This document shows positions 1,363 to 30,317 of a stretch of DNA of 64,000 nucleotides, piece after piece. Position numbers and translations under genes: made by a program. Origin of the DNA: a virus; IMG/VR virus record IMGVR_UViG_3300035684_000001, positions 124,554 through 188,553 of that record; one strand, given 5' to 3'. The first letter of the stretch is position 1. The number at the start of each line of letters is the position of its first letter. The notes beneath the pieces are model-generated. The model ran no database searches. It was given only the letters and a program-made list of their open reading frames with translations, and was not told the origin of the DNA.

Positions 1363-1608
1363 TTAATCATTTACAACAAGGGAGGGATCGTCCGGAGGTA
1401 TCCAAACGCCATTTGCGTCAAATAAGCAATCCACCGCTTGAGCTAAGTATGGGTTGATCGCCCGATCTTTCTCGCCGGCACCGATATCCCAAACTCCAGT
1501 CCGATCGCCCCTTTCAAGCAAAGGCTCAAGACCTATCATTTCTCGCGCTTGGTTTACGGTTATTACACGATAGAAACAAAGTGCTTCTGCTGTTGCGCGA
1601 TTGCTCAT
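1363..1608 (-). CDS. Small protein containing a portal C-terminal-like motif
   Basis: VITVNQAREMIGLEPLLERGD resembles IITKNESRRRVGEKPLSEEGGD in the portal (25488..26915). Confidence 0.5.
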   Translation of the reverse strand: MSNRATAEALCFYRVITVNQAREMIGLEPLLERGDRTGVWDIGAGEKDRAINPYLAQAVDCLFDANGVWIPPDDPSLVVND

Positions 1609-1901
1609 GTTTTTAAAATTGAATTAATGTAACGGTAAGTTACAGCTATAATAGCAAAAACGTCTGAATACGCCTTTTGTAACATAAATTGCTAATTATG
1701 TCAAATATTCCTTTGCTTATTACTGAAAAGTGGCGATCCAGCTCACTTTCATTGCGAATACCAGAACGTCAATTGTCTGTTGTTGTGAAATTTGACGATA
1801 ATAAAGAATGTGTATATTTCTGTAAAGATGAGTACGTTGCTTTCTGACTAATCAAAAATGGTTATTGTGTTACAGCCCCTTGTTACCCTAAGAATTAGAA
1901 A

Positions 1902-2294
1902 ATGAAAATAGTAAGATTTCGATCGCCCGAGTCGCCTGAAACCGCACAACAGATGGCAAAAAAAGTTCAAGCACATTTGTACGACGTTATAAAAGAGGAA
2001 AATGAGCTGACATTTTCTAAATTTGATAAACAAGCTTTTGATTGCGTTATTGCTTTAGAAGGTCTTAACGAACAAGATTATTTTTTTGTTGACACTGAAC
2101 TTTCCTCTGCACTTTTTTCTGGTTTTACGCAACTTAATATTTGTATAGAGATAGTTATTCAATCGTCACAAAGTAATTCTAGTATGTCTGGTCATTTTTA
2201 CAATCATTTAGTTTGCAACTATTTTCAATGCTTGGGAGGTGCAAATGAATTTTTTTCGCAATCACTCCAAGGTTGGTTGGATTTATCAATTTAA
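1902..2294 (+). CDS. Hypothetical protein, AT-rich accessory gene
   Basis: 130-aa ORF with no recognised motif. Confidence 0.45.
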   Translation: MKIVRFRSPESPETAQQMAKKVQAHLYDVIKEENELTFSKFDKQAFDCVIALEGLNEQDYFFVDTELSSALFSGFTQLNICIEIVIQSSQSNSSMSGHFYNHLVCNYFQCLGGANEFFSQSLQGWLDLSI

Positions 2295-2503
2295 TTTTGA
2301 GAGAACTAATAACAAGCTCTACACTGACACTTTTAAATCCTATATTAAGCACAAATGAAATAACTGAATTTGTTTATATAACGGATTGTATTTACAATCC
2401 TACAATACACGTTTTAAGATTTAAAAGAAATGGAGAGCTGCAATTACATCAATTTTTCCCAACCAGGTTAACGATTAGTTTATTTGAGAATTTTACTGAG
2501 TAT

Positions 2504-2821
2504 TTATAACCGATCGCCCCTACTTTCGCCTCCATCATCTTCAACAGTTTGCTCAATATCTACCCGATCGATATGCCCTACTCGTGTCTGCTCTTGCCTT
2601 CTTTCTTTTGACTGGGGATTGTAAGTACCGCAAGCACCTGTTAATGCTGAACCTGCAACACCAAGGGCAATCGCAAATTTTTCGGAGGACAAGTTTGTTG
2701 CAGTAATAACGTAAATAGCAACCACCGCTCCAGAAGCCGTAAGCGCTAACGGTGTGAACGATCTAACTATTTCGGCGAGCGCGTAATAATGTTCGGGCGT
2801 GTTTTTCACTTTATTTACCAC
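2504..2821 (-). CDS. Small two-TM membrane protein, candidate holin
   Basis: Two hydrophobic segments (LALTASGAVVAIYVITAT; FAIALGVAGSALTGACG) followed by a charged C-terminal tail. Confidence 0.4.
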   Translation of the reverse strand: MVNKVKNTPEHYYALAEIVRSFTPLALTASGAVVAIYVITATNLSSEKFAIALGVAGSALTGACGTYNPQSKERRQEQTRVGHIDRVDIEQTVEDDGGESRGDRL

Positions 2822-2922
2822 TTGGTGTTTCTATCTAAACAAGAAAATAACAATACAGCCATTGTTAGACCCGTCAAACAAATTACTACTAAAACCTCAT
2901 ACCATTCCATATTAATATTCCT

Positions 2923-3321
2923 TTAATTTCCATCTGTTTTAACTAGACTATACTTGTACTGCAACACGACGCCGCGACTGTAAATTTCATCAACCAGTTC
3001 CATTTGATAATAAATGCTTCCTACCAGCAATCTAGAATTGGGCAAAACATCTTTATTCGTAAACCCCTCGATCGCCAGTATATAGGCAAAAATTTTTTCT
3101 GTCGTTACCCAGCCTGCGTCTGTTGGAATTCTTGACTGTTTCCGCTCGATATGACCCTGAACAGATCGCCTAGTAAATCCAACTTGTGCTTTTACCGCGT
3201 ATTCAGGATTTGCTGGTTCCACAATTCCTTTTTGACATAGAAACAGTGGAGTCCCCTGCTCTAGAGAACATTGTCTAAATGCCTCCATGTCAAACCAAGG
3301 CGAGTTCATGTCTAGAACCAT
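2923..3321 (-). CDS. Putative head-closure / head-tail adaptor protein
   Basis: Size and beta-rich composition fit; translationally coupled to the head-tail connector-like gene upstream. Confidence 0.4.
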   Translation of the reverse strand: MVLDMNSPWFDMEAFRQCSLEQGTPLFLCQKGIVEPANPEYAVKAQVGFTRRSVQGHIERKQSRIPTDAGWVTTEKIFAYILAIEGFTNKDVLPNSRLLVGSIYYQMELVDEIYSRGVVLQYKYSLVKTDGN

Positions 3322-3929
3322 AGTTTTTTCCGGTAGCGTTCCAGCGGCGACATCAAATCGTCGAGGTTGGTTGAGGATCGCTGGTTTTTGGCTTCTTTCC
3401 CCACCGCGAAAGTTTGAGAAATTCCGCCTTGCAGCCCAACGTTTATTAAATGGCGGGTGCGATCACCCAACACAACTCCTGCCATCAGTCGTCTTAATAT
3501 GTTGAACATAACTTGAGGGACGATCTTCGGCAAAGGGTCGTAACCAGCGGTATAAGTTACTTTATACCGCTGACCGACAGGCGAACAGCAAAATCCGCCT
3601 ACTTCAACGCTCTGACCGCCGCGCCATATAGCTTGAACTTCAATGTCTGGCTGCGGATGTCCCACAAGTGAGGGCAAAGTTGTGGTTATCCCTTTGATTT
3701 CGATTACGGGCGATCGGGAAATGCTCAGCATTCCTCGATAGTTAGCCGGCAAGACTTCCACGTACTCCTTGACCAGCAAAGATTGGTGAAGCCAGTTGTC
3801 CATTTCTTCCTGGGCGATCGTCAACCAGTTTTCCAGTTCCGGCAAATCTGGTAAAGTCTCTAGAGAACAAAGTCGAGCTGCCAGCAATCTACTTGAAGCT
3901 TCGTCAGGTGTAAGATAAAGTTTTCGCAC
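3312..3929 (-). CDS. Phage head-tail connector (gp6/gp15-like)
   Basis: N-terminal YLTPDEA and the YTAGYDPLP..V motif are typical of head-tail connectors. Confidence 0.6.
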   Translation of the reverse strand: MRKLYLTPDEASSRLLAARLCSLETLPDLPELENWLTIAQEEMDNWLHQSLLVKEYVEVLPANYRGMLSISRSPVIEIKGITTTLPSLVGHPQPDIEVQAIWRGGQSVEVGGFCCSPVGQRYKVTYTAGYDPLPKIVPQVMFNILRRLMAGVVLGDRTRHLINVGLQGGISQTFAVGKEAKNQRSSTNLDDLMSPLERYRKKLWF

Positions 3930-3984
3930 AACTTGATTCCAATCGTTTCTAGTGCTAGCATACGCTAAATACTAAAAATACTTC

Positions 3985-4142
3985 AACCTATGCAACGGGT
4001 CTAAAAGCCCCTTTTGTCGTTTAAGGCGATCTCAACCCATGTTGTCGCTGGCGATTCAGTAACTACCAGCTTTCAATCTAAACCCATGCAGGGGCTCCTA
4101 GGGCCCCTTTCGTCGTTTAAGGCGATCTCAACCCATGTTGTC
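3985..4142 (+). repeat. Tandem direct repeat (period 96 bp) in a divergent intergenic region
   Basis: GCCCCTTT(T/C)GTCGTTTAAGGCGATCTCAACCCATGTTGTC occurs at 4007-4046 and 4103-4142. Confidence 0.9.
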
Positions 4143-4488
4143 AAAAGTTCCTCATAATTTATCGCTAAGTGCTGATCAACTTGAAGTGCTATCCGAAATG
4201 GGTATTGCACCAACATCTGTCTACATTATCAAAGCTGAAACCCTCCACCAAACGGCAGTAAGAGTTGATGGCTACACCAACGGGCATTATGTTTTTTTTC
4301 TGGAAGGTGATGCCCGCGACCACGCCATGTTTTTGAAGTATCTGTACGGAGAAAGCTACAGCATTGTAATGCCTACGCGCTTCCGAAATATCACTATTTA
4401 CGGAAGTCCGACAGAGAAGTACGTTATCCCTGCAAATTTAGTCAATTTACAATCAGCGCCGATCAGCCCCATCAACTACAGCGCCTAA
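4135..4488 (+). CDS. Hypothetical phage protein, paralog of 4490..4807
   Basis: LSLSADQLEVLSEMGI and DGYTNGHYVFFLEG match LTLTADQKEILGQLGI and DAYTSGHYLIFVDG in the next gene. Confidence 0.65.
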   Translation: MLSKVPHNLSLSADQLEVLSEMGIAPTSVYIIKAETLHQTAVRVDGYTNGHYVFFLEGDARDHAMFLKYLYGESYSIVMPTRFRNITIYGSPTEKYVIPANLVNLQSAPISPINYSA

Positions 4489-4489
4489 T

Positions 4490-4807
4490 ATGCCTACAGC
4501 GACTCCAGCTTCTCTAACTCTCACCGCCGATCAAAAAGAAATTCTAGGTCAACTGGGAATCGACGTTACAAAGTTAAATTTTGTCAACAACACCGCTGTC
4601 GATCCCGGAATTCTTTGCGACGCTTATACATCGGGTCACTACCTGATTTTTGTAGACGGACTTCAAGAACAGCACGTCAATTTTTTCAAAAAAATGTACG
4701 CGACTCAGACAATTCCAGAACTTGCAATCAAGGTTCCAGGATTGTGGGTTTACGAAACTCCATCTGCCAAGTTCAACAAACCAGAAACTAAAGTAACTGT
4801 GAATTAG
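4490..4807 (+). CDS. Hypothetical phage protein, paralog of 4135..4488
   Basis: Tandem paralogy with 4135..4488. Confidence 0.65.
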   Translation: MPTATPASLTLTADQKEILGQLGIDVTKLNFVNNTAVDPGILCDAYTSGHYLIFVDGLQEQHVNFFKKMYATQTIPELAIKVPGLWVYETPSAKFNKPETKVTVN

Positions 4808-4880
4808 ACGCGATGCAAAATTCAATACTCACCCAAGCCGGGCTAACCAAATTAGTCCGGCTTTTTAAATTGGAGAAAAA

Positions 4881-5303
4881 ATGACACTCGTACAAGCTCA
4901 CCTCAGATTTGGTCGCGAACCCTTACAGATTCCATATCCCGAAGATTTTGAAGGGGATAAATACGACGGTGGAAATACAGACTTTGACGATGCTGAAATT
5001 TACATTTCTACTGAACCGAGATTTTTTACCCCTGACGAGATCGAAGTTGTTCAAGAGTACCTAAAAACCCTTCTTTATTCGCAAGAGTTGATTGAGACGG
5101 GCTGCATCATGATCGACGAAGACGATCCGCTCCTTGAATTCGATCACGACCAATTAGATGCTCTCGAACAAGATCAGTCGTTGCCTCAAACTCGCAAACC
5201 GATCGGCGGTGGAACTCGCCAGTTGTTCGAGCGGGTTTTGCTGATCAGGGAATACGGCTACAGAGGTACGGGGTTTAAAGGATTACCAGGAGCTAAAGAA
5301 TAA
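4881..5303 (+). CDS. Hypothetical protein upstream of the sheath
   Basis: Acidic 140-aa ORF whose stop overlaps the sheath start (TAATG). Confidence 0.6.
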   Translation: MTLVQAHLRFGREPLQIPYPEDFEGDKYDGGNTDFDDAEIYISTEPRFFTPDEIEVVQEYLKTLLYSQELIETGCIMIDEDDPLLEFDHDQLDALEQDQSLPQTRKPIGGGTRQLFERVLLIREYGYRGTGFKGLPGAKE

Positions 5304-8300
5304 TGCCCAGCGCTTTGCAACAATCAATCAAAATTTACGGACCCCCAGAAGGCGCACCCGGTGTGTCTGTAATCGAGCAGCGGTCAGTAAGTATGCTCGG
5401 CGATCCTCAATTTGGCGCGATCGCCCTTTGGGGAAATTTGCGTCGGGGTCCAGTCGGTTTGCCCGTAGCTATTTCATCGAAAAAGCAGTACCTAGAACTG
5501 TTCGGCGATCCCAAAAACCCGGCGTGGCACTTGTACGAAAACAGCGCCCACCTTTGCCCGGATGCAATTGACGGTTTTTTTGCAACTTCAAGGGGTAAAG
5601 GAATTCTATTCCTGTCGCGCCTCGAAATAGATAATGCTAGACCGGCCGAAATAATTATCAAGAACCGTCAAGGTGCGGACGCACTCAGAATCACCGCCGC
5701 CAACCCAGGTCGCTGGGGCGGATACAGAAATGAAATTCCGATTTCTACCGTTGTCGTGGCTACTTCACGGACGTTTACGCTCGTCGCACCTTCGGTAAAA
5801 TCCAATGAATTCATTGGAGCTAAGGTTCGTTTTACGTCCAACTCCGGCAAAACCTACGAAATAGTTGCAAACACGGCAGCAACAGATTCTGGTGAAGTAG
5901 TCTTCACAGTAGGAGCTCAGTACGATCTTGTAGCTGATGGAATTTCGGGTCCAATTTCCATCGACGGAACAGCCAGTTACGCAACAACGAGATCGCTCTC
6001 CGGTACAATTTCTTTTCCGCTTTTGGTTAATTTATCGGGTCAGTGTACGGCTAACCTGACTACAATTACTGGATTCTCAACCTTGTTTGTTTCCGAGTTG
6101 AAAGTAGGTGCAAACATCTATTTAAACGGCGAAGCGAGAAGGATCGAAAGCATTACTTCAGACACTACTTTAACTATCTCAGAACCCTTTAGCAGCGATG
6201 GTCGAGATTTAGTAATGCAGCGCGACAATCTCGTTGTAACAGGAGTAGGTACGGAATTTGTTTCGGAATTAAAACCAGGAGATTCAATTTATTACTCACA
6301 CGATGGCGAAGAATATAGCAGAGAAATTGCTGCGATCGCCTCTGCAACTTCTTTGACCCTTGTATCGGGTTTTGATTTTCCAATTTTAGCTGGCTCATCT
6401 GCTTACGCAGACAATCTGTGGGTGACAGGACAAAACTCGGAATACGAAATTGATATCAAGACTGGCGATGCAATTATCGATCCAAATCGCCGGGGCGAAG
6501 CTGCTACTGTAGTTGAAATTGATGCAGCCAATCAGAGGTTTAAGGTATTCCCCCGTTTTTCTTCAAGCTTTACCGACGCCCAATTGACGAAACAGTCTCA
6601 AAAAGTGCAGGTCAAGCTGGAACAACCAGAAAACGTTGGGCTGGCAATCGAAATTGGACAAGGAACTAAATATCCCGAAACTCATTTTTCATTGAAATGT
6701 TATTTCAATGGAACTTTGATGATTTCGGTTCCAGATGCTTCTCTAGAGAGGGAAGATCCTTATTTTGTCGAGACTATCGTCAATGACGGCAATATCGGCT
6801 ACCGCACCTCCGGACAAAATTATCAAACGTGGATTGTGGTTGAGTCGTTGTGGAGTTCGACTTACACGACGGGAATACAGTCTGACGTTCGCCCCTGCAA
6901 CGGTACTGGCCAAGTTTTGGAGTTGGCAGCTCAAAAACTTTATACAGTCGGTCAATTTGATTACAACGCGGTCATCGGTCGCCTGTTTGCCCCAAATCCT
7001 TACAAATATTCCCGCAACGCGCTGAGAATAAAAAATGCCAGCGCTCCTTTGACCTTAGAAGGAACGATAAGTTCCAGCGGCGTAGATGTTAGGGGTACGG
7101 GAACAATTTTCCGCAAGCAGTTGAAGCGCGGCGATTACCTTTACGATCCGGCATCGGGAACCGTTCGCAAAATTAGGTTGATTCCGAGCGACACCGAATT
7201 AATTCTTGAAACCATGTTTCTAAAGAATGTTCGGTCAGGGACAAAAGCACTGCGCTCTGGATATCTGCTTGTAGATCAAGGTAACGATCTTACGAACTAC
7301 TGTAAAGTTGGTGATCGGTTTTTGGTGTCTTACCCTGAATATTTAAAATTTGGGTATGATGGCGACACGGCTCGTTTAACTTCCTACAACTTTACCAAAT
7401 ATTTCGATCTTGATCGCAACTATTTAGTAACAGCAGTTTTTGGGAGAAATGTTGGACTCGTAAGAATGGCTGTTCCCGGTGTTTCCGACATATCAACTCA
7501 AAAAGCTGGCATTGAGTATGCGTATCAAAACGCTTTTGAGTATCGAGCAGAAATACCTTCCAATATCAACAATTCAGCAGTAGCGGAAGTTTTTATCGAG
7601 CAAGATTTGGAGCGCAACAATTATATGTCTGTTGCGTTTCCTTCTTATGGATATGTTTCCAACCCGAGGGGAACTGGCGATCGGTTTGTTTCACTTTCGG
7701 GCGACATTATGGGACTAGAAAGTGCCAAAGCAAGTTTAGCAGAAGGCTATCACCATCCCGCTGCTGGGCTTGACGCTCGTTTGTCAAGAGTAACAAAACT
7801 ACCGTTTACGCCCACTCCCAGCGATGAAGCAATTTTGAATTTAGTCGGCATTCAACCGATTAAAGTTTATGCCGGCAAAGTTATTGTTTGGGGTGCTAGG
7901 TGTCCGTCTGTTGACGATATTTATACCTTTCTCCATGTCAGGCGAATTCAGTCGAATTACCTGCGAGTGTTTATGGAAGCTAGAAGCTTCTTGCAAACAC
8001 TGTTTCAGCCAAATCAACCTGAATTAGCGCAGCAAATTGTACTAATTCTCGAAAGTTTTGCGCGACGGGAATACCAGAAAGGAGTTTACACTCGATATCT
8101 TTCTTTCGATCAAGCCGTAAGAATTGATTCTTCCGGTGGGGAGTCTGGCGATTTTGACGTAGTAGTTTCAATTCTCAATGGAGAATTGAATATTTATTAC
8201 GGGTACATTCCAACAGGTGTATTAGAAAGGTTGCAAATTTTTGTAGCCCCAGAAACAATTGTTTCTCGCGTTGGAAATAGCAGTGTAAATGCTAACTTTC

Positions 8301-8305
8301 TATAG
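5303..8305 (+). CDS. Contractile tail sheath protein (1000 aa) with inserted repeat domains
   Basis: N-terminal PGVSVIE...GPVGLPVAISSKKQYLELFGDP. C-terminal sheath fold motifs GYHHPAAG, LNLVGIQPIK...VWGAR, LHVRRI and FQPN. Confidence 0.9.
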   Translation: MPSALQQSIKIYGPPEGAPGVSVIEQRSVSMLGDPQFGAIALWGNLRRGPVGLPVAISSKKQYLELFGDPKNPAWHLYENSAHLCPDAIDGFFATSRGKGILFLSRLEIDNARPAEIIIKNRQGADALRITAANPGRWGGYRNEIPISTVVVATSRTFTLVAPSVKSNEFIGAKVRFTSNSGKTYEIVANTAATDSGEVVFTVGAQYDLVADGISGPISIDGTASYATTRSLSGTISFPLLVNLSGQCTANLTTITGFSTLFVSELKVGANIYLNGEARRIESITSDTTLTISEPFSSDGRDLVMQRDNLVVTGVGTEFVSELKPGDSIYYSHDGEEYSREIAAIASATSLTLVSGFDFPILAGSSAYADNLWVTGQNSEYEIDIKTGDAIIDPNRRGEAATVVEIDAANQRFKVFPRFSSSFTDAQLTKQSQKVQVKLEQPENVGLAIEIGQGTKYPETHFSLKCYFNGTLMISVPDASLEREDPYFVETIVNDGNIGYRTSGQNYQTWIVVESLWSSTYTTGIQSDVRPCNGTGQVLELAAQKLYTVGQFDYNAVIGRLFAPNPYKYSRNALRIKNASAPLTLEGTISSSGVDVRGTGTIFRKQLKRGDYLYDPASGTVRKIRLIPSDTELILETMFLKNVRSGTKALRSGYLLVDQGNDLTNYCKVGDRFLVSYPEYLKFGYDGDTARLTSYNFTKYFDLDRNYLVTAVFGRNVGLVRMAVPGVSDISTQKAGIEYAYQNAFEYRAEIPSNINNSAVAEVFIEQDLERNNYMSVAFPSYGYVSNPRGTGDRFVSLSGDIMGLESAKASLAEGYHHPAAGLDARLSRVTKLPFTPTPSDEAILNLVGIQPIKVYAGKVIVWGARCPSVDDIYTFLHVRRIQSNYLRVFMEARSFLQTLFQPNQPELAQQIVLILESFARREYQKGVYTRYLSFDQAVRIDSSGGESGDFDVVVSILNGELNIYYGYIPTGVLERLQIFVAPETIVSRVGNSSVNANFL

Positions 8306-8332
8306 TTTTTTCATTCTTGAGACTTTTTTACA

Positions 8333-8899
8333 ATGCGTAAAGCAACATTATCTCCAAATCCGATTCCGCAAAACAAACAGCGATTTATTGTTGAAGGATT
8401 GCCAGAATGCGACCGAATTATTACTAGAGATGCAATCAATCTTGAGATTACAACTGCCGATCGCCCGGATAAAACTAAGGTTCCAATTGGTCGAGTCAAT
8501 CCCGGTGATTTTGGCATCACTTTAGACTTTGCTGACGACAAAGCCAGAAATGAATATTTGGGATGGTTTGAAATGTGCATCGATCGAGGTTCTGCTTTGC
8601 GAGCTACTAACGCTCGCACTAGGGAATTGATTGGAGCTGGTGGCGATGTTGCATCTAGAACTTACGGGGGGGTTCCGGGTATCGATCCTAAATACAAAAA
8701 ATTGGCGTCAATTATTTATCAAAGATTGTACATACAAGAACCGCCAATTGTTTGTAAATTAATTGGCGTATTTCCGTCGTCATGCGAATTTCCGGATTAC
8801 GATATGGACGGCGAAGATTTGTGTACTCTGTCTATGACGCTTTCTTACGACGACGTTGAACCGATTGGCGATTTCAGAGCGTTTGGAAACAGTTTTTAA
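8333..8899 (+). CDS. Tail tube protein
   Basis: Directly follows the sheath. 188 aa with LIGVFPSSCEFPDYD and LSMTLSYDDVE, a T4 gp19-like pattern. Confidence 0.75.
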   Translation: MRKATLSPNPIPQNKQRFIVEGLPECDRIITRDAINLEITTADRPDKTKVPIGRVNPGDFGITLDFADDKARNEYLGWFEMCIDRGSALRATNARTRELIGAGGDVASRTYGGVPGIDPKYKKLASIIYQRLYIQEPPIVCKLIGVFPSSCEFPDYDMDGEDLCTLSMTLSYDDVEPIGDFRAFGNSF

Positions 8900-8900
8900 T

Positions 8901-9722
8901 ATGGTACTTAAAACTCCTCGCATTGTATCGATCGCCCCTTGGTTGGCGCTGCCAAATCAAAAAATCGTAATTAACGGTAGCGGATTTACAAAGGATGTTG
9001 CCGTTAAACTAGGAGAATCTGTAAGTTTAACGGTAACATTCCACAGTCCGACTCAAATTTCGGCGATTGTCCCGGTCGTCTCTCCGGGAAGTTATTTTAT
9101 TGTTGTTGATCGCGCCGGGGTAAAATCTAATGCGGTACGGGTGGCGATCGACAACAACTCTGCAATTACTCCACCGCCCCCGCCAATAAAACCGCAACCT
9201 TCTCCTGAGATTGAGATTGTTTGCGTCGATTATCCTGTTGTTGGGGCGATCGCCACCATTAAAGGCTCTGGATTTACGCCAGCAACATCTGTATTTTTTG
9301 GCGATGTGTCGGCGACAGACGTTGCTGTAGTTGATTCCGGCAAGATTCGGGTCAAAATTCCCGTCGTTGAACCGGGGAACCTCACTCTAAAGGTTAAAAC
9401 AGTTGCAGGCGAAGATTCAGAGTCGTTCCAAGTTTTGCATCCCATCCCGAACCCTACTTTTAGGACTGTGGACGACGAATTTGAGTATTGGAATATGGCA
9501 ACAAATACTTGGACTCGCTGGGAATCTAAAACTCCAGAATCTACACCTCAAGATGTTTTAATGGCGATGGTCGGTAATTTGAGTGCAATGGCGATCGCTC
9601 AGTCGAAGCAAATATCAGAACTTGAAAATCGGGTGTCGGTACTGGATTCGGTACAGTTAAATTTGGATCTGGCGATCGCTATTCTCAAAGCACAGGGAAA
9701 TAGCTTGAGCTTGATTGTGTAG
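8901..9722 (+). CDS. IPT/TIG-domain virion protein with C-terminal coiled coil
   Basis: Two TIG repeats (IVINGSGFT...ISAIVP; ATIKGSGFTPATSVFFG...IRVKIP) joined by a Pro-rich linker. Start is likely ATG 8901. Confidence 0.75.
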   Translation: MVLKTPRIVSIAPWLALPNQKIVINGSGFTKDVAVKLGESVSLTVTFHSPTQISAIVPVVSPGSYFIVVDRAGVKSNAVRVAIDNNSAITPPPPPIKPQPSPEIEIVCVDYPVVGAIATIKGSGFTPATSVFFGDVSATDVAVVDSGKIRVKIPVVEPGNLTLKVKTVAGEDSESFQVLHPIPNPTFRTVDDEFEYWNMATNTWTRWESKTPESTPQDVLMAMVGNLSAMAIAQSKQISELENRVSVLDSVQLNLDLAIAILKAQGNSLSLIV

Positions 9723-9736
9723 GCAAATTTAAACAG

Positions 9737-11822: not shown

Positions 11823-11896
<74 letters not shown>

Positions 11897-22740: not shown

Positions 22741-22851
22741 ATTTTTTAATTGAAACTCCAACTAGGATTTGGTCGTGGATTTCAACTAACGTCTGAAGAT
22801 AGCCTCACTTTGCACCGCGCTTGGTGAGGTTATTTATATTTTTAAAAAATC

Positions 22852-23121
22852 ATGGAAGAAATTACGATTATTCCACTCGATCCACTACCAGAATGTTCGT
22901 CTAACGAAGTACGTAAAATATGCGTCAAAATTGGTGACGGAGTTAAGACTAGATTTAAGTTTATTTTGCCATTTGCAATAATTGTTTCTTGGAGATTGCT
23001 TACGTGTCTTGATGAAGTAATCGAACCAGACTGCTTGTTGCGCGACAAAGAATTAATTTTACATTTTGGTAGACCTCCGTTGTTTCACGAGTTTACTTTT
23101 GAAATTTTGGGAATTTTATGA
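22852..23121 (+). CDS. Small tail-fibre-associated protein
   Basis: IGDGVKTRF motif shared with the fibre C-termini. Confidence 0.45.
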   Translation: MEEITIIPLDPLPECSSNEVRKICVKIGDGVKTRFKFILPFAIIVSWRLLTCLDEVIEPDCLLRDKELILHFGRPPLFHEFTFEILGIL

Positions 23122-23525
23122 AAACAAATGAAGCTGGACTGAACCTGATTAAATCTTTTGAAGGTTTGCGACTAGAAGCTTATCTTTGTTCTGCTGGTAT
23201 TTGGACAATTGGTTACGGACATACTGGCGATGTACAAGAAGGCTATATTATCACAGAAACAGAAGCAGAAGAACTATTTTTGAGAGATTTGCAAAATGCA
23301 GAATCTATAGTCAATGATTTAGTGAAAGTTAAACTTAATGACAATGAATTTTCTGCATTGACAAGTTTCGTGTTTAATGTGGGTTTAAGCCAATTCTCTG
23401 AATCCACTTTGCTCAAAATGCTGAACGATCAAGAATATCAAAAAGCTGCCGATCAATTTTTGAGGTGGAACAAAAATGGCGAGGATAGACGACGAATTTT
23501 GGAACGAAGATTGTTTCTATCTTAA
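23118..23525 (+). CDS. Phage lysozyme (GH24 endolysin)
   Basis: GLNLIKSFEGLRLEAYLCSAGIWTIGYGHT...QFLRWNK...RR..ER.LFL. Confidence 0.95.
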   Translation: MKTNEAGLNLIKSFEGLRLEAYLCSAGIWTIGYGHTGDVQEGYIITETEAEELFLRDLQNAESIVNDLVKVKLNDNEFSALTSFVFNVGLSQFSESTLLKMLNDQEYQKAADQFLRWNKNGEDRRRILERRLFLS

Positions 23526-23541
23526 AGGAAAAATAAATTAA

Positions 23542-23892
23542 ATGTTCTTTTTTCGCCAAGAAAATTATTCGGTAAGGGAAGGCGAGTCTATCGAAATTTC
23601 CGTAGTTCGACACGATAGCTCTCGACCTGCGTCGGTTCGAGTTGCGACCAGCAACAGGAGTGCCAAAGAAACTGACTACGTTCCAATAAATCAAGTTCTT
23701 TCTTTTGATGTTGACGAAACTCACAAAGTAGTCAGAGTTTTTGCAAAAAAAGATTACCTTGTAGAAGGAGATGAATTTTTCACTCTACAACTGTTAGCGA
23801 CAGAACCAAATACTATTGGATCTCCGTCGATCGCCACGATCAAAATTATCGATATGCCCGTACCAACTGACGGTTTACCTACTTTTGATTGA
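23542..23892 (+). CDS. Stand-alone Calx-beta domain protein
   Basis: YSVREGE...VRVATSNRSAKETDY...LSFDVDETHKVVRV...LVEGDEFFTLQL...IGSPSIATIKIID. Confidence 0.8.
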   Translation: MFFFRQENYSVREGESIEISVVRHDSSRPASVRVATSNRSAKETDYVPINQVLSFDVDETHKVVRVFAKKDYLVEGDEFFTLQLLATEPNTIGSPSIATIKIIDMPVPTDGLPTFD

Positions 23893-24004
23893 GTTAATTT
23901 TACAAAAAAATGGCAAAATTAAGCAAGTTATTTTAAAAATAATAATTGTGCATAATGTTACACTAAGGTGTGTTATAATAATCATGTTCACGTTGGTTAA
24001 ACAC

Positions 24005-24556
24005 ATGACACTTGATAATGCAATGAAATTAATGGATGTGCAAGTAGTTTTCACTCTTGAAAATATATTTTCCATTGAAAAAACAATTGAACTAGAGAAT
24101 AATACTTCTTTTGAAAAACTGGTGTTTAAGATTGACAAACCTTTTGAAATGTTTGCCTTACAAGGTTGTACTACATTTTTGGTTGTCTGTAAAGATGTAG
24201 CAATACAAGCAATGAAGTCTGTCAATACTGCAAAAGGAGGCGGACTACCTCTTGATGCTGATGATTCTTTTTCAAATTACCCCGACAAAAATAGCGCTGA
24301 TATTCTTGGTCTTATAACTTCAGCAAAGATCGAGAGTTCAGATTTCTTTGTAAAAGGACATTTGTTTCCTTGGAGTCCAAAAAATAAAGCAGGCGACATT
24401 ATAAACCCAAACAATTTGGGAATATTTTTGAATGGAAAAGTTTTGGGAAATATTGTCGAAATTAATGAATCAAAAGTGTTACAAGTATCTAGCCTCGAAT
24501 TTCTAGGGGGAAATCTTTTTCTCACGAACAACAACTCTGCTCTGCTGCCAGCTTAG
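24005..24556 (+). CDS. Stand-alone diverged copy of the prohead protease domain
   Basis: Aligns to the middle of 26988..28634 (FKID.P, GLPLDADDS, DF.VKGHLFPW, LG..LNGK..G.IVE.N.SKV). Has its own TGTTATAAT at 23971-79. Confidence 0.7.
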   Translation: MTLDNAMKLMDVQVVFTLENIFSIEKTIELENNTSFEKLVFKIDKPFEMFALQGCTTFLVVCKDVAIQAMKSVNTAKGGGLPLDADDSFSNYPDKNSADILGLITSAKIESSDFFVKGHLFPWSPKNKAGDIINPNNLGIFLNGKVLGNIVEINESKVLQVSSLEFLGGNLFLTNNNSALLPA

Positions 24557-24663
24557 AACTTCAAAGTCATAGCTAGCATAAAATTTTTAGCATTTTACTG
24601 GTCAATTAAAAAGAGGGGCGATCGAATTATTATCCTATCGCCCCTCTTTTTGTGAATCAAATT

Positions 24664-25053
24664 TCAGTTATTTAGCGGGAACGACAATTCGATCGCTGTT
24701 ATTTGCGTCAAAAAATATACTGCGCTAGGATTGCGTTCTCCAACTTGCTCTTGCATTTGAATTTTTAAGTATTGTAAGTATCCCGGAGTTAGGGACGATT
24801 CAATTAATTTTGCTGATTCCGCGATATACTTTGCAGACTCCAATTTAGCCATCGCATCTTGTACTTGTGCTTTTTTTGAATATTCTGCACGGGCTAGTGC
24901 TGCCCTTCCGTCTTGTTCGGAACTGTACACATTGTAGTTAGGGATAAACCAAAGCACAAATGCAATTGCAAACAACAAAACTATAAATCCTAAAAAACTA
25001 AAATTGAATTGGTTTGACAGATCGATTTTGAAGCCATATTTTGCCAGTGACAA
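24664..25053 (-). CDS. Membrane protein resembling the phage stomatin/prohibitin-like 'membrane protease subunit' family
   Basis: TM helix followed by PNYNVYSSEQDGRAALARAE...EA/AKLESAK...YLQYL. Confidence 0.6.
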   Translation of the reverse strand: MSLAKYGFKIDLSNQFNFSFLGFIVLLFAIAFVLWFIPNYNVYSSEQDGRAALARAEYSKKAQVQDAMAKLESAKYIAESAKLIESSLTPGYLQYLKIQMQEQVGERNPSAVYFLTQITAIELSFPLNN

Positions 25054-25154
25054 CCGCTTTTAACGCTTTTTATTATACGTTGCTTGTTTGGAAAATAGCG
25101 CACTTTTGTATAAAATTAATAATTTGTTTTAATAAATCTGTGATTTTCCAGAAG

Positions 25155-25496
25155 TTAAGCTTCCGGGTGACGCAGGAACTCAGAACCCCGATCGCCCGCC
25201 CGTTGAACTTTGACTTCCATTCCCGGATACATTTCGTCAAAAACCGAACCGACCTCGTTTTGGATCAAAAATTCCCGGACGTTCCGGGGTTCTCCGTTAT
25301 TTTCGAGCAAAAAGTAAGGAATCAGAGTATCGTTGTAGATACTTGTTTTATTTGATTTCCTTGGGATGTCGCGACCGTAAATAACTGGTGGCGACGCTCT
25401 GCGGGTAATCGAATCCCATATTAGAGTCATAAAAATAAATAAATTTCCTAGCCGGAGTCCCTGCAGATTGCGGTATTTTTTTTCGTTATGGTTCAA
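25155..25496 (-). CDS. Hypothetical protein
   Basis: 113-aa ORF divergent from the portal. Confidence 0.4.
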   Translation of the reverse strand: MNHNEKKYRNLQGLRLGNLFIFMTLIWDSITRRASPPVIYGRDIPRKSNKTSIYNDTLIPYFLLENNGEPRNVREFLIQNEVGSVFDEMYPGMEVKVQRAGDRGSEFLRHPEA

Positions 25497-26915
25497 AACA
25501 GCCTAACCCGATCGCCCGTCCCAGACTTTCAGTATCAGCAACGCGCCATTGCCTCATTATACAGTGCCTCGGAATACTTCAACCCGGTGGGTCACTTTAA
25601 TAAATCGCTCAACTGCGATCCAGTGAGTCCCCAAAAATTGAGGTCGATTTCTAAAAAGACACTGTTCTCGCGGGCGATCGAGCGGATTTCGAATGCTGTT
25701 GTGGCAATGCCGTGGACGATCGCCCCACCAGAAGAACTGAGCGATGATGAAGGAGCTCGAAAAAAAGCGCTCGAATTGACCAAGGCACTGAGCCAGCCGA
25801 ACAACGCGGAACACGACTTGTACAGCAGTTTTGTCAAGGCAGTAATCCGGGATATTCTGGTCATGGGGGTTGCAGCGGTAGAGAGGCAACCGGGAACTCA
25901 AGGATTTCAGCCTTTTTGGCTGTGGGTAGTGCCACCGGAAAAAGTTTACCTAGATGGAAATTGGGATGCGTCTAGGGAGGGTATACACCCCAAGTTTTGG
26001 TACTGTCAAAACCAAGACAGAAGTTCTTATCGTTATTTGGACGATACTAACTGGATACCGATCCTCAGTAAAAATCTTTTTTTAATTCAGAACCGATCCG
26101 CGAGTAACGAATTATTTCCGCCGTCTCCAGTCGCTTGTGCTTACGAACGGTTAAATACGTGGTTGGATCTCGATAACTATCAAAGCCGGATAGTGAACAA
26201 TCCGGTACGAGATTACATGATCACAGTTGAAAATGCTACTCACGATGAATTGCAACCGTTCCGAGAGTATTGGAAAGTCAACGTTGTAGGCTCGGGAGAG
26301 GTTCCGATCCTAGCAGGCAAAGTAGATGTCATAAAATTTGGAGCCAGAAACGACGAAGAGTTATTTTTGAAGTTCTCAGACTATCTGGCTGGGCTGATCG
26401 CGATCGAGTTTGGACTATCGAAGCGCGACTACGGAATTGATCCCCATGATAACCGATCAACGATGGGGCCCGCAGCGGATTTAACGTTCCAAGATGCAAT
26501 CTTGCCGATCGCCACCTGCGTAATTGAAAATTTAAACATCAAAGTTATTGACTTCTATGCTCCTGGATACACGTTGACGTTAACTGACACGGAGCCGAGA
26601 AAAGAAAGCGAGGAAGCTGACACAGCAAGCACTCTGTACACTAACGGAATTATTACAAAAAATGAAAGTAGACGGCGGGTCGGTGAAAAACCTTTAAGTG
26701 AAGAGGGGGGAGATAAATTTTTTGAAGGAAAAACGGGAACAACTGAGGAGACTCTTGCAATTCCAGCAGAACCTCCGATACTACCAATGGAGCTTCCAAC
26801 AATTCCGCCGCAGTCTAAACGAGAATCCCAAGGCAGAACTCGGCGCAAATCCCCGCGAAAACCCAAAAGGTCTTCCATTGAAGAAACTAATAGTATACAA
26901 TTATCATTATTCTAA
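25488..26915 (+). CDS. Portal protein
   Basis: AIERISNAVVAMPW, DILVMGVAAVE, IAIEFGLSK, GIITKNESR motifs; position ahead of protease and capsid. Confidence 0.85.
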   Translation: MVQNSLTRSPVPDFQYQQRAIASLYSASEYFNPVGHFNKSLNCDPVSPQKLRSISKKTLFSRAIERISNAVVAMPWTIAPPEELSDDEGARKKALELTKALSQPNNAEHDLYSSFVKAVIRDILVMGVAAVERQPGTQGFQPFWLWVVPPEKVYLDGNWDASREGIHPKFWYCQNQDRSSYRYLDDTNWIPILSKNLFLIQNRSASNELFPPSPVACAYERLNTWLDLDNYQSRIVNNPVRDYMITVENATHDELQPFREYWKVNVVGSGEVPILAGKVDVIKFGARNDEELFLKFSDYLAGLIAIEFGLSKRDYGIDPHDNRSTMGPAADLTFQDAILPIATCVIENLNIKVIDFYAPGYTLTLTDTEPRKESEEADTASTLYTNGIITKNESRRRVGEKPLSEEGGDKFFEGKTGTTEETLAIPAEPPILPMELPTIPPQSKRESQGRTRRKSPRKPKRSSIEETNSIQLSLF

Positions 26916-26987
26916 AATCACACACGCACCTTTGCCGGGGAACTGCTAATACAGCAGATTTCCGGCTATTTTGTTTTTTACCCAAAG

Positions 26988-28634
26988 ATGGACAAGGAAC
27001 TAGCCGGAGCCGGAAAAATGCTATCTCAATTAAACAGCGGTCGCTTGACAGCGGCTTTTGTTGAGATAGGTAAAACGCTCATAGCCGCAGGCGCAATCTC
27101 CGCATCAGATTTAGGAACTCTGTTTGAAGGGGTTGCAGAAACTTTTGAGGGTGAAAACACCTTAGAAGCGGGTGCAGCTATGAGCCTTCGGGAGCGATAC
27201 AAGCGAGAGATTGTCTGGAGCAATTTTCGCCATTTGCTCAGCAACCTAGAATCTATGTGTAATGGAATTCTTTCCACACCTAAGGATTCAGCAGATCGAC
27301 TATCTGCAATCGTTTCTGACTTTAAAGACACTTTTAACGAAATACTCAAAGAAGCATCAACCCTCGATCCGATTCCAGACGATTTTGGAATGATGCACAG
27401 AGGCGGTCTTTACTGCGCTAAAACAGAAGATCCTAGCGAGTTATCGGCTTTGCAGTTAGTGGAGTCTGCATCTCAATTAGTTGATGTAGAACTGCATTTT
27501 GGTATTGAAAAGCCGCTAATCCTTGAAAAAGCAATCGAAATTAATTCCGACGAATCTGTAGAAACTGTAGAGGCTTCTAGTCCAAATCAAAATATTACTC
27601 CGCTAAAAGGGGTGTTATTTAAAATTGACGAACCTTCCGAGTCAGCTCCTTCAAAAGGTTCTGATTATCCTCTGCTTATCCCTATGGATGTAGCGGAAAG
27701 AGCAATGGAATTTGTTAATGCCGCAAAAGGACTGCCTCTTGATGCTGACGATTCTTTGTCAAAACACGCCAACGAAGATATTATCGGCATCATGACTTCA
27801 GCGGAAATTGATGCTTCCGATTTCGTTGTTAAAGGACATCTATTCCCTTGGAACCAAAAAGACAAGGTAGACGCAATCGCCCTAAACCAAAACAACTTGG
27901 GGATGTCTTTAAACGGAAAAGCTTCTGGGAAAATTGTCGAGATGAACGGCTCAAAAGTTTTTGAGTTGTCCAACCTCGAAATTTTAGGGGCAAACATTCT
28001 ACTTAAGAACAGAGCGACATATCAAAAAACGCGAATTTATCCGCTGGGTGAAATCGCAGCATCCGCACCAAATGAACTAGAAAACCAATCAACAGAAGGA
28101 GTAAAACCAAATATGGACTTAGAACGGGCGATCGGGGAACTCCAAAAAACTTTAGGAGAAATCAGAGCAGATGGCGCCAAGGAGGCTGAAATTGCAAAAG
28201 CCAGAATTCAGCAACTAACAGAAACAGTTAGCGCTCAACAACATTTGCTACAAACGATTCAAGCCGAACGCGACCAATCAATCGCAGTAGCTCAATCGCA
28301 AACTTTGGCGGCCCAAAAAGCCCAAGAACACCAAGAGTTAATTGCAGCTATTGGTACTGCGGTGCAATCACAAGTTCAGGCTCAAGTAGGTTCATTAAAA
28401 GAAGAAATTATCGACTCGATTAATCCTAAGCGAGTACCCCCGCGCATGACTGGTTCTTTGGTGGGTATAACAGCAGCCGGACAGGAAAACCAACAGTCAA
28501 ATGCGGTGCGCGATAAACTTTTAATTATCTCTGGAGAACTAAAAGCGTTAGGCGAGGATCAAGCTACTAATCCTCGACGTATCGCTCTATTAGACGAAGC
28601 TCACAGACTGAACCAACAATTATCTGTAAGCTAG
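26988..28634 (+). CDS. Putative prohead protease / scaffold fusion
   Basis: Lies between portal and capsid; central globular domain plus a C-terminal Q/A-rich coiled coil. Confidence 0.6.
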   Translation: MDKELAGAGKMLSQLNSGRLTAAFVEIGKTLIAAGAISASDLGTLFEGVAETFEGENTLEAGAAMSLRERYKREIVWSNFRHLLSNLESMCNGILSTPKDSADRLSAIVSDFKDTFNEILKEASTLDPIPDDFGMMHRGGLYCAKTEDPSELSALQLVESASQLVDVELHFGIEKPLILEKAIEINSDESVETVEASSPNQNITPLKGVLFKIDEPSESAPSKGSDYPLLIPMDVAERAMEFVNAAKGLPLDADDSLSKHANEDIIGIMTSAEIDASDFVVKGHLFPWNQKDKVDAIALNQNNLGMSLNGKASGKIVEMNGSKVFELSNLEILGANILLKNRATYQKTRIYPLGEIAASAPNELENQSTEGVKPNMDLERAIGELQKTLGEIRADGAKEAEIAKARIQQLTETVSAQQHLLQTIQAERDQSIAVAQSQTLAAQKAQEHQELIAAIGTAVQSQVQAQVGSLKEEIIDSINPKRVPPRMTGSLVGITAAGQENQQSNAVRDKLLIISGELKALGEDQATNPRRIALLDEAHRLNQQLSVS

Positions 28635-28722
28635 AACCGCGCAAAATACCGCGAATACAACCTCAGCCGGGAAACCATCAAGTTTCCCGGTTTTTTATTC
28701 TTTTCGTATCAGGTTTAAATAA

Positions 28723-29778
28723 ATGGCTAATCACGTAAGCGACATTCGATTTGAAGATCCCCTTGCTGTTCAAGATTCCATGATTCAAGCAGGAGCTAGC
28801 AACCTAGGCGGGTTTGCAGTTCGCCAAGATTTTTTACCTTTGATTGGAGATTACCGCGTCAAAGTTACACAATTCTGGAAAAGAATTACTAACAAGCTTC
28901 CGGCAGCTTCCCCGATTATTCAAGAAATGATAACTTCTTCGTTGCCAACAGTTGCGTTTGCACCTAGAGGCAACTTAGAAGCTGTTCCCACTCAACCACC
29001 AATTTCGCTTGGGTATGGTCCTGGGCAAGAAGTTAAAGCAATAGTTGGTCGCATTCACTGCGAACACTTTGCTATGAGTATGGTTCACCAACAAAATAAT
29101 GCTTACGGCGATCAAATGTCAACAGACACTCACAACTTGATTCTGTCGGCAATGCGTTTCTTGGAAAGGTCTTTGTTTACCGGAAATGCAAGCGTTAACC
29201 AACTTGCTTTTAACGGAATGGTGGCGCAAATGCCACCTGAAAACCTTTTTACGGCAGACATTACGAGCGATAATCCAGACGCAATTCACGATAAAATCGA
29301 CGAAATTTGCTCAAGATCGGCGTATCGACCTAACTCGCTGATCGAACACTATCCAACACATATCTTTTGTAGTGGGGCTGGTGATCGACTAATCAAAAAA
29401 GAAATCAAGCAACTTCAGTTATATCACAACGTAAAAGAGATAACTCCTGGCGTTAAAGTGCCAGCTATTTCTACTTCATTTGGAGATGTAGAAATTGTTC
29501 CTACTGTTTATTTGCAAGATAAATCAGAAGAAGATGCAGATATCATTTCCTACTATATAGTCGATATGAATAATTTTGCTTGGTTCGGCGTTTATCCCTA
29601 CGGCGGTCAAAGAAAATTCGAGCCGCAAATATTTGACTTGAGCCACGTAGTGAACGGACTGCCGACCCTGCGAGAAAGAATGATTATTCTCTACGGGACT
29701 CCAAAAGCTATGGACGAAGGTAGGGGAATCTTTAGGCTCGACGTAAAAGCTCCTCGCGGTTCTAAGTTTGAGGGTTAA
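28723..29778 (+). CDS. Major capsid protein
   Basis: 351 aa following the protease. LERSLFTGNASVNQLAFNGM and ISTSFGDVEIVPT are HK97-fold-type motifs. Confidence 0.8.
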   Translation: MANHVSDIRFEDPLAVQDSMIQAGASNLGGFAVRQDFLPLIGDYRVKVTQFWKRITNKLPAASPIIQEMITSSLPTVAFAPRGNLEAVPTQPPISLGYGPGQEVKAIVGRIHCEHFAMSMVHQQNNAYGDQMSTDTHNLILSAMRFLERSLFTGNASVNQLAFNGMVAQMPPENLFTADITSDNPDAIHDKIDEICSRSAYRPNSLIEHYPTHIFCSGAGDRLIKKEIKQLQLYHNVKEITPGVKVPAISTSFGDVEIVPTVYLQDKSEEDADIISYYIVDMNNFAWFGVYPYGGQRKFEPQIFDLSHVVNGLPTLRERMIILYGTPKAMDEGRGIFRLDVKAPRGSKFEG

Positions 29779-30306
29779 AAATATCAATCACAATAGCGAA
29801 GAGGATTTTAACGGGACAAGATTATGAATAAAAATCACGACAAATTACTGGAAAGTCTAGATGTCGTAGGGTGTCGGGTTGTTTTGAACGGAATGGTAGC
29901 TCAAATACCTACTGACAACCTTTTTGAAGCGGACATCACTAGCCATAATCCCGATGTGATTAGCGAAAAGATTGAGGAAATCTGCACAAAATCAGCGTTT
30001 CGACCAAAATCGCCAATCAAACCGACACATATTTTTTGTAGCGGAGCTGGTGTTCGATTAATGATTGCAGAAATCAAACAGTTGCAGTTGTTTCACAAGG
30101 TAAAGAGATAACTCCCGGCGTTAAAGTACCATTTATTTCTACTCCATTCGGGGATGTAGAAATCGTTTCTACCGTCTATTTACAAGATAGAACAGAGCCA
30201 GGTGCAGATATCATTTCGTACTATATCGTTGACATGAAAAATTTCGTCGATCAAGGAACGTTTAGGCTCGACGTAAAAGCTCCTCGCGGTTCTAAGTTTG
30301 AGGGTT
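29731..30306 (+). repeat. 46-bp perfect direct repeat (29731-29776 and 30261-30306)
   Basis: TTTAGGCTCGACGTAAAAGCTCCTCGCGGTTCTAAGTTTGAGGGTT occurs twice, 530 bp apart. Confidence 0.95.
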
Positions 30307-30317
30307 CAAAATGCTAA
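29824..30317 (+). pseudogene. Diverged partial duplicate of the capsid C-terminal half, frameshifted at about 30105
   Basis: NGMVAQIP.DNLF.ADITS.NPD...PTHIFCSGAG; after a 1-nt deletion it continues EITPGVKVP...FRLDVKAPRGSKFEG. Confidence 0.85.

Follow-up and report, generated by a model that had tools for sequence, protein, structure and literature searches.

Do three sequences that resemble parts of phage head genes, all found in one stretch of a large cyanophage genome, form a functional system that interferes with head assembly? The original prediction held that all three consecutive head genes (portal, protease and capsid) possess a diverged, truncated counterpart elsewhere in the DNA, and that the prophage might carry these fragments as a dominant-negative module against kin or as an archive of variation. 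Our analysis indicates that each of the three pieces arose on its own by duplication, recombination and loss, that they stand at different stages of this process, and that they do not make up a functional set; we give this reading a probability of about 0.63.

The phage, its relatives and its head genes

The DNA derives from a temperate cyanobacterial myovirus of ~189 kb. The IMG/VR viral contig comprises 188,553 bp, and the window analyzed here is its final 64 kb. The single near-complete relative, the sister record G001 (188,942 bp), is classed as a provirus and was searched end to end. The other relatives are mostly short contigs that span the head module only; capsid and protease copies were scored within those spans, and in L023-L029 every head gene occurred once within +/-10 kb. 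A tblastn search of 50,697 GenBank phages with the major capsid protein (MCP) and the protease gave no match, and a scan of genome contigs with a single MCP recovered no relative. The head genes from which the pieces could have been derived, and the gene that follows them, are arranged as follows:

25488..26915, plus strand: portal protein, 475 aa (PF04860, E 2.9e-22; phrog_2662)
26988..28634, plus strand: 548-aa prohead protease, with the protease domain at residues ~190-352 and a coiled-coil, scaffold-like region fused C-terminally (AF2 and Foldseek)
28723..29778, plus strand: MCP, HK97 fold, 351 aa (AF2 pLDDT 77, pTM 0.78)
30311..30790, plus strand: conserved gene, 159 aa, found 2-6 nt 3' of the MCP gene in relatives without the capsid half-copy (L013, L015, L016, L017, L018)

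The 548-aa protein matched no Pfam family, its C-terminal part matching coiled-coil only, and a profile of its family yielded nothing but coiled-coil noise among PDB sequences. For the AF2 model of residues 150-360 (pLDDT 86), T4 gp21 (5jbl) was the first Foldseek match (E 3e-4, probability 1.0), followed by herpesvirus assemblins (HCMV, PrV, EBV and KSHV proteases). Judged by this model, the gene codes for a prohead protease with the T4 gp21/assemblin fold. Our family search assembled 438 representatives, and three residues of the protease domain proved near-invariant among its members: S68 (144/145), H111 (145/145) and S158 (144/144), which correspond to S217, H260 and S307 of the 548-aa protein. 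Invariance and fold, rather than a superposition, point to H260 and S307 as catalytic residues. The MCP model gave 203 Foldseek matches at E<=1e-3, to phage capsids and encapsulins, and there was a weak SU10_MCP match; the spine helix of the model comprises residues 129-153.

An extra copy of the protease domain, predicted to be inactive

One of the three pieces is a second protease domain located upstream of the portal gene, within a small cassette:

23945..24556, plus strand: truncated prohead-protease-domain paralog, ORF from an ATG at 23984 or 24005, stop codon at 24554-24556
23970..23978, plus strand: extended -10-like box TGTTATAAT, upstream of the protease-domain ORF, a consensus match read from the sequence
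24608..24650, no strand assigned: strong hairpin with an A-run and a T-run on its flanks, which probably acts as a bidirectional terminator and closes the cassette of the protease copy

When the 548-aa protein was compared with the window by tblastn, its residues 135-342 matched 23945-24532 (42% identity, E 2e-40), and BLASTP of the extra copy against the phage's own protease (residues 158-341) gave 45% identity over 189 aa (E 4e-46). The search for protease family members recovered the same copy as P0074. Its nearest relatives are the phage's own protease (45%) and then the G001 protease (42%), with all others at 38% or below. All three near-invariant residues are gone from the copy, S217, H260 and S307 being replaced by F47, Y92 and F141. 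Since the catalytic His and Ser are absent, we regard the copy as a pseudoenzyme and not as an active family member, and predict it to be catalytically dead. The short family members P0116, P0129, P0132 and P0135 were also considered as decoys and rejected; their catalytic residues are intact, and they are stand-alone proteases in other phages.

The copy has lost its active site, yet its reading frame is free of stops over 203 codons, where neutral simulation leads one to expect 5-10. The frame stayed open in 0 of 2000 simulations at full divergence and in 5 of 2000 at half divergence. Identity to the parent gene by codon position is 62/73/52%, a pattern that stems partly from the selected parent gene; as the copy has no ortholog, it is on this pattern and on the simulations that the constraint ascribed to it rests.

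The slot in which the extra copy sits, with the tail-fibre/lysozyme genes on one side and the portal gene on the other, is variable. Its GC content is 34% vs 43% for the window. The segment 24596-24660 folds at -26.8 kcal/mol (z -5.9), a stability that none of 200 shuffled sequences reached. For TGTTATAAT, the promoter scan gave no matching -35 element. In G001/L007, an unrelated stretch of 468 bp stands in place of window positions 23895-24614; the hairpin is kept in L007 and marks the right edge of this indel. No extra protease copy is present in the whole 188,942-bp record of G001, none was seen at 11 other related loci, and the copy forms a singleton cluster.

With a terminator of its own, a deviant composition and a presence/absence polymorphism, the cassette at 23970-24650 resembles a moron. 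Phage morons are promoter-ORF-terminator cassettes between prophage operons. The protease piece is like them in its -10-like box, strong terminator, lower GC content and presence/absence relative to the sister phage; unlike them, it carries a copy of the phage's own structural enzyme and not an outside gene for host fitness or exclusion, and its promoter is putative. We propose that this truncated paralog lost Ser/His/Ser while selection held its frame open, and that it most likely yields a non-catalytic protein which may bind partners of the protease (the substrate sites or the protease itself).

A counterpart is known from SPN3US and related giant phages, whose gp117 is a truncated, presumably inactive prohead protease paralog (PMC5694885). 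Both gp117 and the extra copy are a second, shortened T4 gp21-type protease in the same large myovirus genome, and in both the catalytic His is not aligned. However, related giant phages have retained gp117, whose Ser and Asp still align, whereas the copy described here occurs in one genome, has lost both His and Ser, and sits in a slot that is variable and moron-like, where it has a terminator to itself. The frame-keeping pseudoprotease is a second, independent example beside the SPN3US-like 'cryptic protease.'

A partial tandem copy of the capsid gene

Directly downstream of the MCP gene, the window contains a partial copy of it in two sections, together with a pair of direct repeats:

29824..30111, plus strand: capsid half-copy part 1, a 95-aa ORF with a new 17-aa N-terminus followed by a homolog of MCP residues 160-238 (66% identity, E 1e-35)
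30102..30317, plus strand: second part of the capsid half-copy, read in frame 3 and homologous to MCP residues 238-286 and 333-351 (tblastn)
29731..29776, plus strand: first copy of a 46-bp direct repeat, in the 3' end of the MCP gene, identical to 30261-30306
30261..30306, plus strand: second copy of the 46-bp direct repeat, in the 3' end of the half-copy, identical to 29731-29776

In a tblastn search of the window, the MCP matched 29875-30126 (frame 1, residues 160-245, 63%) and 30102-30305 (frame 3, residues 238-351) with a joint E of 2e-49. Since these matches lie in frames 1 and 3, the half-copy spans two frames. Comparison with L007 reveals that the frame of part 1 is closed by a stop resulting from a 1-nt deletion in the A-run at 30102-30104. 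The stop of the half-copy is displaced by 3 codons and overlaps the ATG (30311) of the next gene. In G001/L007, both parts are joined in one intact 161-aa ORF (L007:11101-11586), and the deletion in the A-run could be an assembly error rather than a real frameshift. Programmed frameshifting at this site appears improbable, the G GTA AAG context offering no canonical slippery heptamer.

Relative to the MCP, the half-copy has an internal deletion of 46 aa, and MCP strands 302-329 fall within the deleted stretch. Of the HK97 fold, the A-domain and the final strand make up most of what is retained, and the complete set of N-arm, E-loop, spine helix, P-domain sheet and A-domain is not present.

The half-copies of the window and of G001 form one clade (SH-aLRT 99) nested within the close MCP clade, and 30 sites favour a duplication that preceded the split of the window phage from G001, vs 5 concerted sites. 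As judged from these comparisons, the half-copy is a tandem duplication derived from the phage's own MCP clade. A foreign-allele origin was considered and rejected; the copies are 72-74% identical to all close MCPs vs 56-61% for the next group, and they nest in the close MCP clade. Searching 5.8 billion proteins for half-size MCP homologs revealed none outside the window genome and G001, and the half-copy was not found at the 11 other related loci; in L013, L015, L016, L017 and L018 the 159-aa gene directly follows the MCP gene with no half-copy between. That the fragments are self-derived, as the original prediction had supposed, is supported for the protease and capsid pieces, which identity ranking and the tree identify as truncated, diverged copies from this phage or near kin.

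We envisage that 29824-30317 arose once, before this phage and G001 separated, as a tandem partial duplication that took in the MCP gene from about codon 160 to its stop, together with the junction to the gene that follows. The half-copy is still intact in G001 and is broken here by the 1-nt deletion and the displaced stop. Outside the 46-bp repeat, the half-copy is ~75-78% identical to the MCP gene; the identical 3' ends have probably been kept alike by gene conversion and would also make loss of the half-copy easy.

Between the window and L007, the half-copy has a dN of 0.106 and a dS of 0.273, an omega of 0.39 compared to 0.08 for the MCP, so that it evolves several times faster than the MCP; this NG86 estimate takes no account of transition bias and might be lowered by gene conversion from the MCP gene. 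Synonymous changes are in excess (binomial p = 0.0015). Unusual constraint at the nucleotide level was considered and rejected, the 87% identity to L007 lying inside the 75-92% mosaic range of the neighbouring genes. Purifying selection, for which the original prediction had called as a test, is in evidence to a degree: the omega of 0.39 and the open protease frame indicate that these two pieces are not purely neutral, but the frameshift in the half-copy of this genome speaks against it.

Capsid paralogs within head modules have precedents. The vertex protein gp24 of T4 is a paralog of its major capsid protein, gp23, and is full-length, essential and conserved. Like gp24, the half-copy is an HK97-fold capsid paralog encoded in the head module; unlike gp24, it is sporadic and is devoid of the N-arm, E-loop, spine helix and P-domain hairpin. 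It also resembles the tandem partial duplications of prophages, in that it adjoins its parent, is bounded by direct repeats and occurs in some related genomes only. Campylobacter CJIE4 prophages, for example, carry a partial duplication beside the full-length gene (PMC3995785). Unlike duplications of the CJIE4 type, the one described here has the major capsid gene as its parent, and the copy is an intact ORF in one genome with an omega of about 0.4.

A small accessory gene with a portal-like motif

1363..1608, minus strand: conserved small ORF, 81 aa, whose N-terminal ~33 residues resemble a C-terminal motif of the portal protein (hhalign)

The third piece differs from the other two. A tblastn search of the window with the portal protein returned nothing at 1363-1608, even at E<=10, and PF04860 did not match the 81-aa ORF at E<=10, either by hmmscan or in a six-frame search of the contig. 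Pairwise BLASTP aligned ORF and portal with 12/29 identities at an E of 3e-4 in a search space of 81 x 475; scaled to the six-frame window this becomes ~0.5, and the pairwise match alone is therefore not above chance. Comparison of profiles built from four ORF homologs and four portals with hhalign paired ORF residues 5-37 with portal residues 378-410 (33 columns, 80.5% probability, E 1.3e-5), and the structure and feature leads for the ORF in the protein atlas were portal clusters. On the basis of these two results, a short motif shared with the portal is plausible.

The family of this ORF has four known members with 54-76% identity and an invariant N-terminal half; the ortholog in G001 is syntenic and comprises 76 aa. 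The ORF is a conserved accessory gene and not a fragment of the portal gene. We suggest that it is older than the other pieces and has a short portal-crown-like motif only. Of the proposed trio of truncated counterparts, those of protease and capsid are thus substantiated by tblastn and BLASTP, whereas the portal is represented by a motif of 33 residues.

Do the pieces act together?

The pieces lie 22 kb and 5 kb apart, on both strands and in different transcription units. G001 possesses the 81-aa ORF and the capsid half without the protease piece, and the 11 other loci are without extra capsid or protease copies. The survey of related loci proposed as a check on co-occurrence thus found the pieces sporadic and unconserved, and the notion of a single set or system is not supported. 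Searches of the three pieces against Pfam, PHROGs and PADLOC identified no family, and the PADLOC models gave 0 families at E<=0.01 for the three products and their neighbours. Because neither the ages and distributions of the pieces nor their strands and transcription units agree, and about 20 other paralog families, with other fragments among them, occur on the contig, we read the pieces as independent.

Are they then functionless? It is unlikely in our view that all three are neutral debris, made up of the remains of pseudogenes and a motif due to chance, and that none has a function as a protein. The sporadic distribution, the frameshift and displaced stop of the capsid half, the loss of invariant protease residues through single changes of the C-to-T type in an AT-drifted segment, and a contig rich in paralogs and fragments would all agree with it; the stop-free protease frame, the omega and p value of a half-copy that is intact in G001, and the retention of the 81-aa ORF with its invariant N-terminal half in four genomes would not. 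The original prediction had allowed for independent duplication debris, and the data favour the independent duplication but not full neutrality. As two of the pieces show some constraint at the protein level, the term 'leftover' may undersell them.

Equally unlikely, by our estimate, is that the protease domain predicted to be dead and the capsid copy with only the A-domain each function independently as assembly regulators or exclusion factors, with the pseudoprotease, for instance, restraining the protease or its cleavage sites. A protease ORF that is retained with fold-supporting residues after loss of the active site, the moron-like features of its cassette, the half-copy omega below 1 and the conserved cryptic protease paralog of giant phages (PMC5694885) are in keeping with such roles; the protease piece is nonetheless found in one genome only, and the half-copy is broken here. 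We hold it to be less probable still that the protease copy with its dead domain, perhaps along with the A-domain-only capsid half of G001, is an expressed, selected, self-derived assembly inhibitor that is produced in the lysogen from a moron-type promoter and poisons head maturation of superinfecting kin. If true, this would be superinfection exclusion of a new class, made out of structural genes that belong to the phage itself.

The capsid-redirection proteins P4 Sid, SaPI CpmA/CpmB and PLE TcaP are small proteins, encoded by satellites, that act on the way another phage assembles its head. A function of this kind was first proposed for the pieces, but the satellite proteins are not derived from helper head genes and share no homology with the pieces. 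A joint, self-derived interference module, in which dominant-negative fragments poison head assembly of superinfecting kin, is very improbable. It could draw on the presence of some counterpart for all three head genes, on an inactive protease piece with an open frame and a promoter-like box and terminator of its own, on the half-copy omega below 1, and on a sister record that is a provirus, which makes expression in a lysogen conceivable. Against it stand the lack of co-occurrence, with the protease piece absent from G001, the capsid half missing from 11 other loci and a second protease copy in none of them; a capsid piece broken in this very genome; a portal 'fragment' that belongs to a separate conserved gene family of accessory regions; differing strands and transcription units; and the lack of any PADLOC match. 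As a decoy system the pieces would have represented a new principle of defence, but the evidence does not bear out a system.

Least credible of all is the archive of variation, in which the pieces are silent donor cassettes feeding the head genes by gene conversion, since, although MCP gene and half-copy have identical 3' ends over 46 bp against ~75-78% in the remainder and at two shared sites both have Lys codons in this genome where both copies of L007 have Arg codons, 3 concerted sites outside the 46-bp end face 3 homoplasy and 30 copy-separating sites, the protease piece (62% nucleotide identity to its parent) is too diverged for homologous exchange, and the capsid diversity of relatives does not track the presence of the cassette.

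The pieces provide a clear case of a large temperate cyanophage whose head genes have, inside a narrow clade, undergone duplication, truncation and loss. The retained protease copy, predicted to be dead, is the piece most worth testing, and it is a simple candidate with which to ask if capsid maturation is regulated or blocked by protease domains that have lost their activity. The analysis also defined a family of protease-scaffold fusions that has no Pfam model, comprises 438 representative clusters and is predicted to adopt a T4 gp21-like fold.

Head module and host of the phage

Contractile-tail and fibre genes occupy the left part of the window, and the head module comes next:

25488-26915, portal (PF04860)
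26988-28634, 548-aa gene (prohead protease and scaffold-like region)
28723-29778, major capsid protein (MCP)
30311-30790, conserved 159-aa gene
following the 159-aa gene, endolysin-like gene

Within the tail module, 8 nt separate a tRNA-Met gene (11823-11896) from a downstream 636-aa gene that encodes a P2 gpI-like baseplate domain. The window makes up the final 64 kb of its IMG/VR viral contig, which measures 188,553 bp. The closest relative that we found is the sister provirus G001 (188,942-bp record, provirus class, estimated 98% complete), which contains the locus L007. Since the HIP1 octamer GCGATCGC is present in 34 copies in the window (0.5 expected), and in 112 copies in the contig as a whole (1.5 expected), a cyanobacterial host is very likely; for a phage genome, this excess is a strong signature of such hosts.

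The 548-aa protein belongs to a family of 438 representative clusters for which Pfam possesses no model. Its AlphaFold model (residues 150-360, pLDDT 86) matches T4 gp21 and then herpesvirus assemblins, and its C-terminal third has coiled-coil matches only; the gene therefore encodes a prohead protease that continues into a scaffold-like part. Among 145 family members (numbering of the 548-aa protein), S217 is conserved in 144, H260 in all and S307 in 144 of 144. Near-invariant positions across P0004-P0153 of the family are N202, G208, S217, P221, A236, H260, G267, G305 and S307. This fusion group could merit a new family definition of its own.

A dead protease domain with a maintained reading frame

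A search of the window with the 548-aa protein (tblastn) returned a match at 23945-24532 (E 2e-40), within the protease copy at 23945-24556. The copy carries F, Y and F where its parent has S217, H260 and S307; relative to the parent codons, one C-to-T step each accounts for the His and Ser307 replacements, and two steps for that of Ser217. Compared with the parent, 135 residues are missing at the N-terminus and 200 at the C-terminus, and there is a 15-aa deletion. Judged by its sequence, it cannot be an active protease. Nevertheless, no stop codon interrupts its frame for 203 codons, with 62% of nucleotides identical to the parent (62/73/52% by codon position), and neutral simulations left the frame open in none of 2000 runs at full divergence and in five of 2000 at half divergence. 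The closest known case is gp117, a shortened and presumably inactive prohead protease paralog that has been described in SPN3US and related giant phages (PMC5694885).

The copy is AT-rich (34% GC vs. 43% for the window), is preceded by the extended -10-like box TGTTATAAT (23970-23978, plus strand; a consensus match only), and is followed by a strong hairpin (-26.8 kcal/mol, z -5.9) between a run of A and a run of T, features of a putative moron-like cassette. It is most similar to the phage's own protease (45%) and that of G001 (42%), with others at 38% or less, and it is a singleton in a collection of 15 billion proteins. It was not found anywhere in the whole G001 record; the same slot there holds other DNA, 468 bp in length. 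A 129-aa ORF on the minus strand (24664-25053) adjoins the cassette; it matches phrog_11227, annotated as "protease" (E 7e-16), and has a homolog on the minus strand of L007 (5987-6358).

The capsid half-copy

With the MCP, which has the HK97 fold, tblastn matched 29875-30126 and 30102-30305 in two frames (E 2e-49). Behind a new 17-residue N-terminus, this half-copy (29824-30317) aligns to MCP residues of about 160-286 and 333-351; on the MCP model this amounts essentially to the A-domain plus the last strand, with no N-arm, E-loop, spine helix (129-153) or strands of residues 302-329. In L007 it is a single intact 161-aa ORF whose stop codon abuts the ATG of the next gene. The version in the window has one A fewer in the run at 30102-30104, and its stop codon has shifted by three codons.

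The 3' ends of the MCP gene (29731-29776) and the half-copy (30261-30306) share 46 identical bp in the window, and two sites that read Lys in both genes here read Arg in both in L007. This identity and concerted variation suggest local gene conversion. Elsewhere, 30 sites group the two half-copies together and apart from the two MCPs, as compared to 5 concerted sites and 3 homoplasies. In the tree, the half-copies form a clade nested inside the close MCP clade, so that derivation from this phage or a near relative is indicated; the same nesting rejects an origin from a distant allele.

In a comparison of the two genomes, the half-copy shows a dN of 0.106, a dS of 0.273 and an omega of 0.39 (MCP: omega 0.08), and synonymous changes are in significant excess (p = 0.0015); these values point to a constraint that was relaxed yet genuine during some of its history. 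We did not find the half-copy in L013, L015, L016, L017 or L018 (MCP 64-91% identical), where the 159-aa gene starts 2-6 nt after the MCP gene, nor in the related loci L023-L029. A search of 5.8 billion proteins turned up no other half-size homolog.

The 81-aa ORF is a conserved small gene

The original prediction assigned a diverged counterpart to each of three consecutive head genes. This held for protease and capsid but not for the portal, which had no tblastn match at 1363-1608 even at E<=10. A pairwise comparison of portal and 81-aa ORF gave 12 of 29 residues, about chance level once scaled to the six-frame window, and the PF04860 profile did not detect the ORF. In a profile-profile comparison with four portals, ORF residues 5-37 resembled portal residues 378-410 (80.5% probability), and a protein atlas independently listed clusters of portals as its neighbors by structure and by features; a short common motif is likely. 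The ORF belongs to a four-member family with an invariant N-terminal half, and represents a small gene conserved in its own right rather than a piece of the phage's own portal. It resides in accessory-gene regions in every context visible. The G001 ortholog (76 aa) has two ORFs next to it (L009:621-1223), one of 200 aa with the Walker-A-like motif GSNGTGKS and one of 58 aa that is Cys-rich; since both are missing at the corresponding position of the window, the flanks are variable accessory cargo.

Probably independent pieces rather than a system

The three pieces had been proposed to form one self-derived module interfering with head assembly. The evidence says no: their ages and distributions differ, with the 81-aa ORF carried by four genomes, the half-copy by two and the protease copy by one, and the survey of relatives did not reveal co-occurrence of all three. 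The pieces are distributed over both strands and separate transcription units, at spacings of 22 kb and 5 kb, and defence models gave no match for their products. Some 20 other paralog families occur in the contig, among them further fragments such as a 90-aa piece of fibre-like proteins, so it is no surprise that two or three head genes should also be partly copied here.

Most likely, duplicates are born and die independently. The half-copy would be a tandem duplication decaying in the window genome, with the 46-bp direct repeats permitting both its conversion and its deletion. The protease copy would be a retained pseudoenzyme, which might bind the protease's substrates or the protease itself.

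Among the paralogs of the contig are four LRR proteins, three replication-initiator-like genes, the pair 40193-41446 / 42409-43539 and two fibre-like proteins, whose extra 90-aa fragment lies just upstream of the window. A replaceable slot is found on each side of the head module. In the left one, window positions 23895-24614 correspond to unrelated DNA in the sister phage (L007:5462-5930); in the right one (about 30800-31200), the sister phage lacks some 300 bp after the 159-aa gene, a region with a small ParD-like ORF in the window. Two distant relatives harbor mobile elements: an RRXRR/HNH endonuclease gene directly after the homolog of the 159-aa gene (L023:11570-12865), and an IS200/605 Y1 transposase with a Cas12f/TnpB-like gene near the head module (L024:13836-15891). 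These elements fit the view of the head region as a recombination hot spot.
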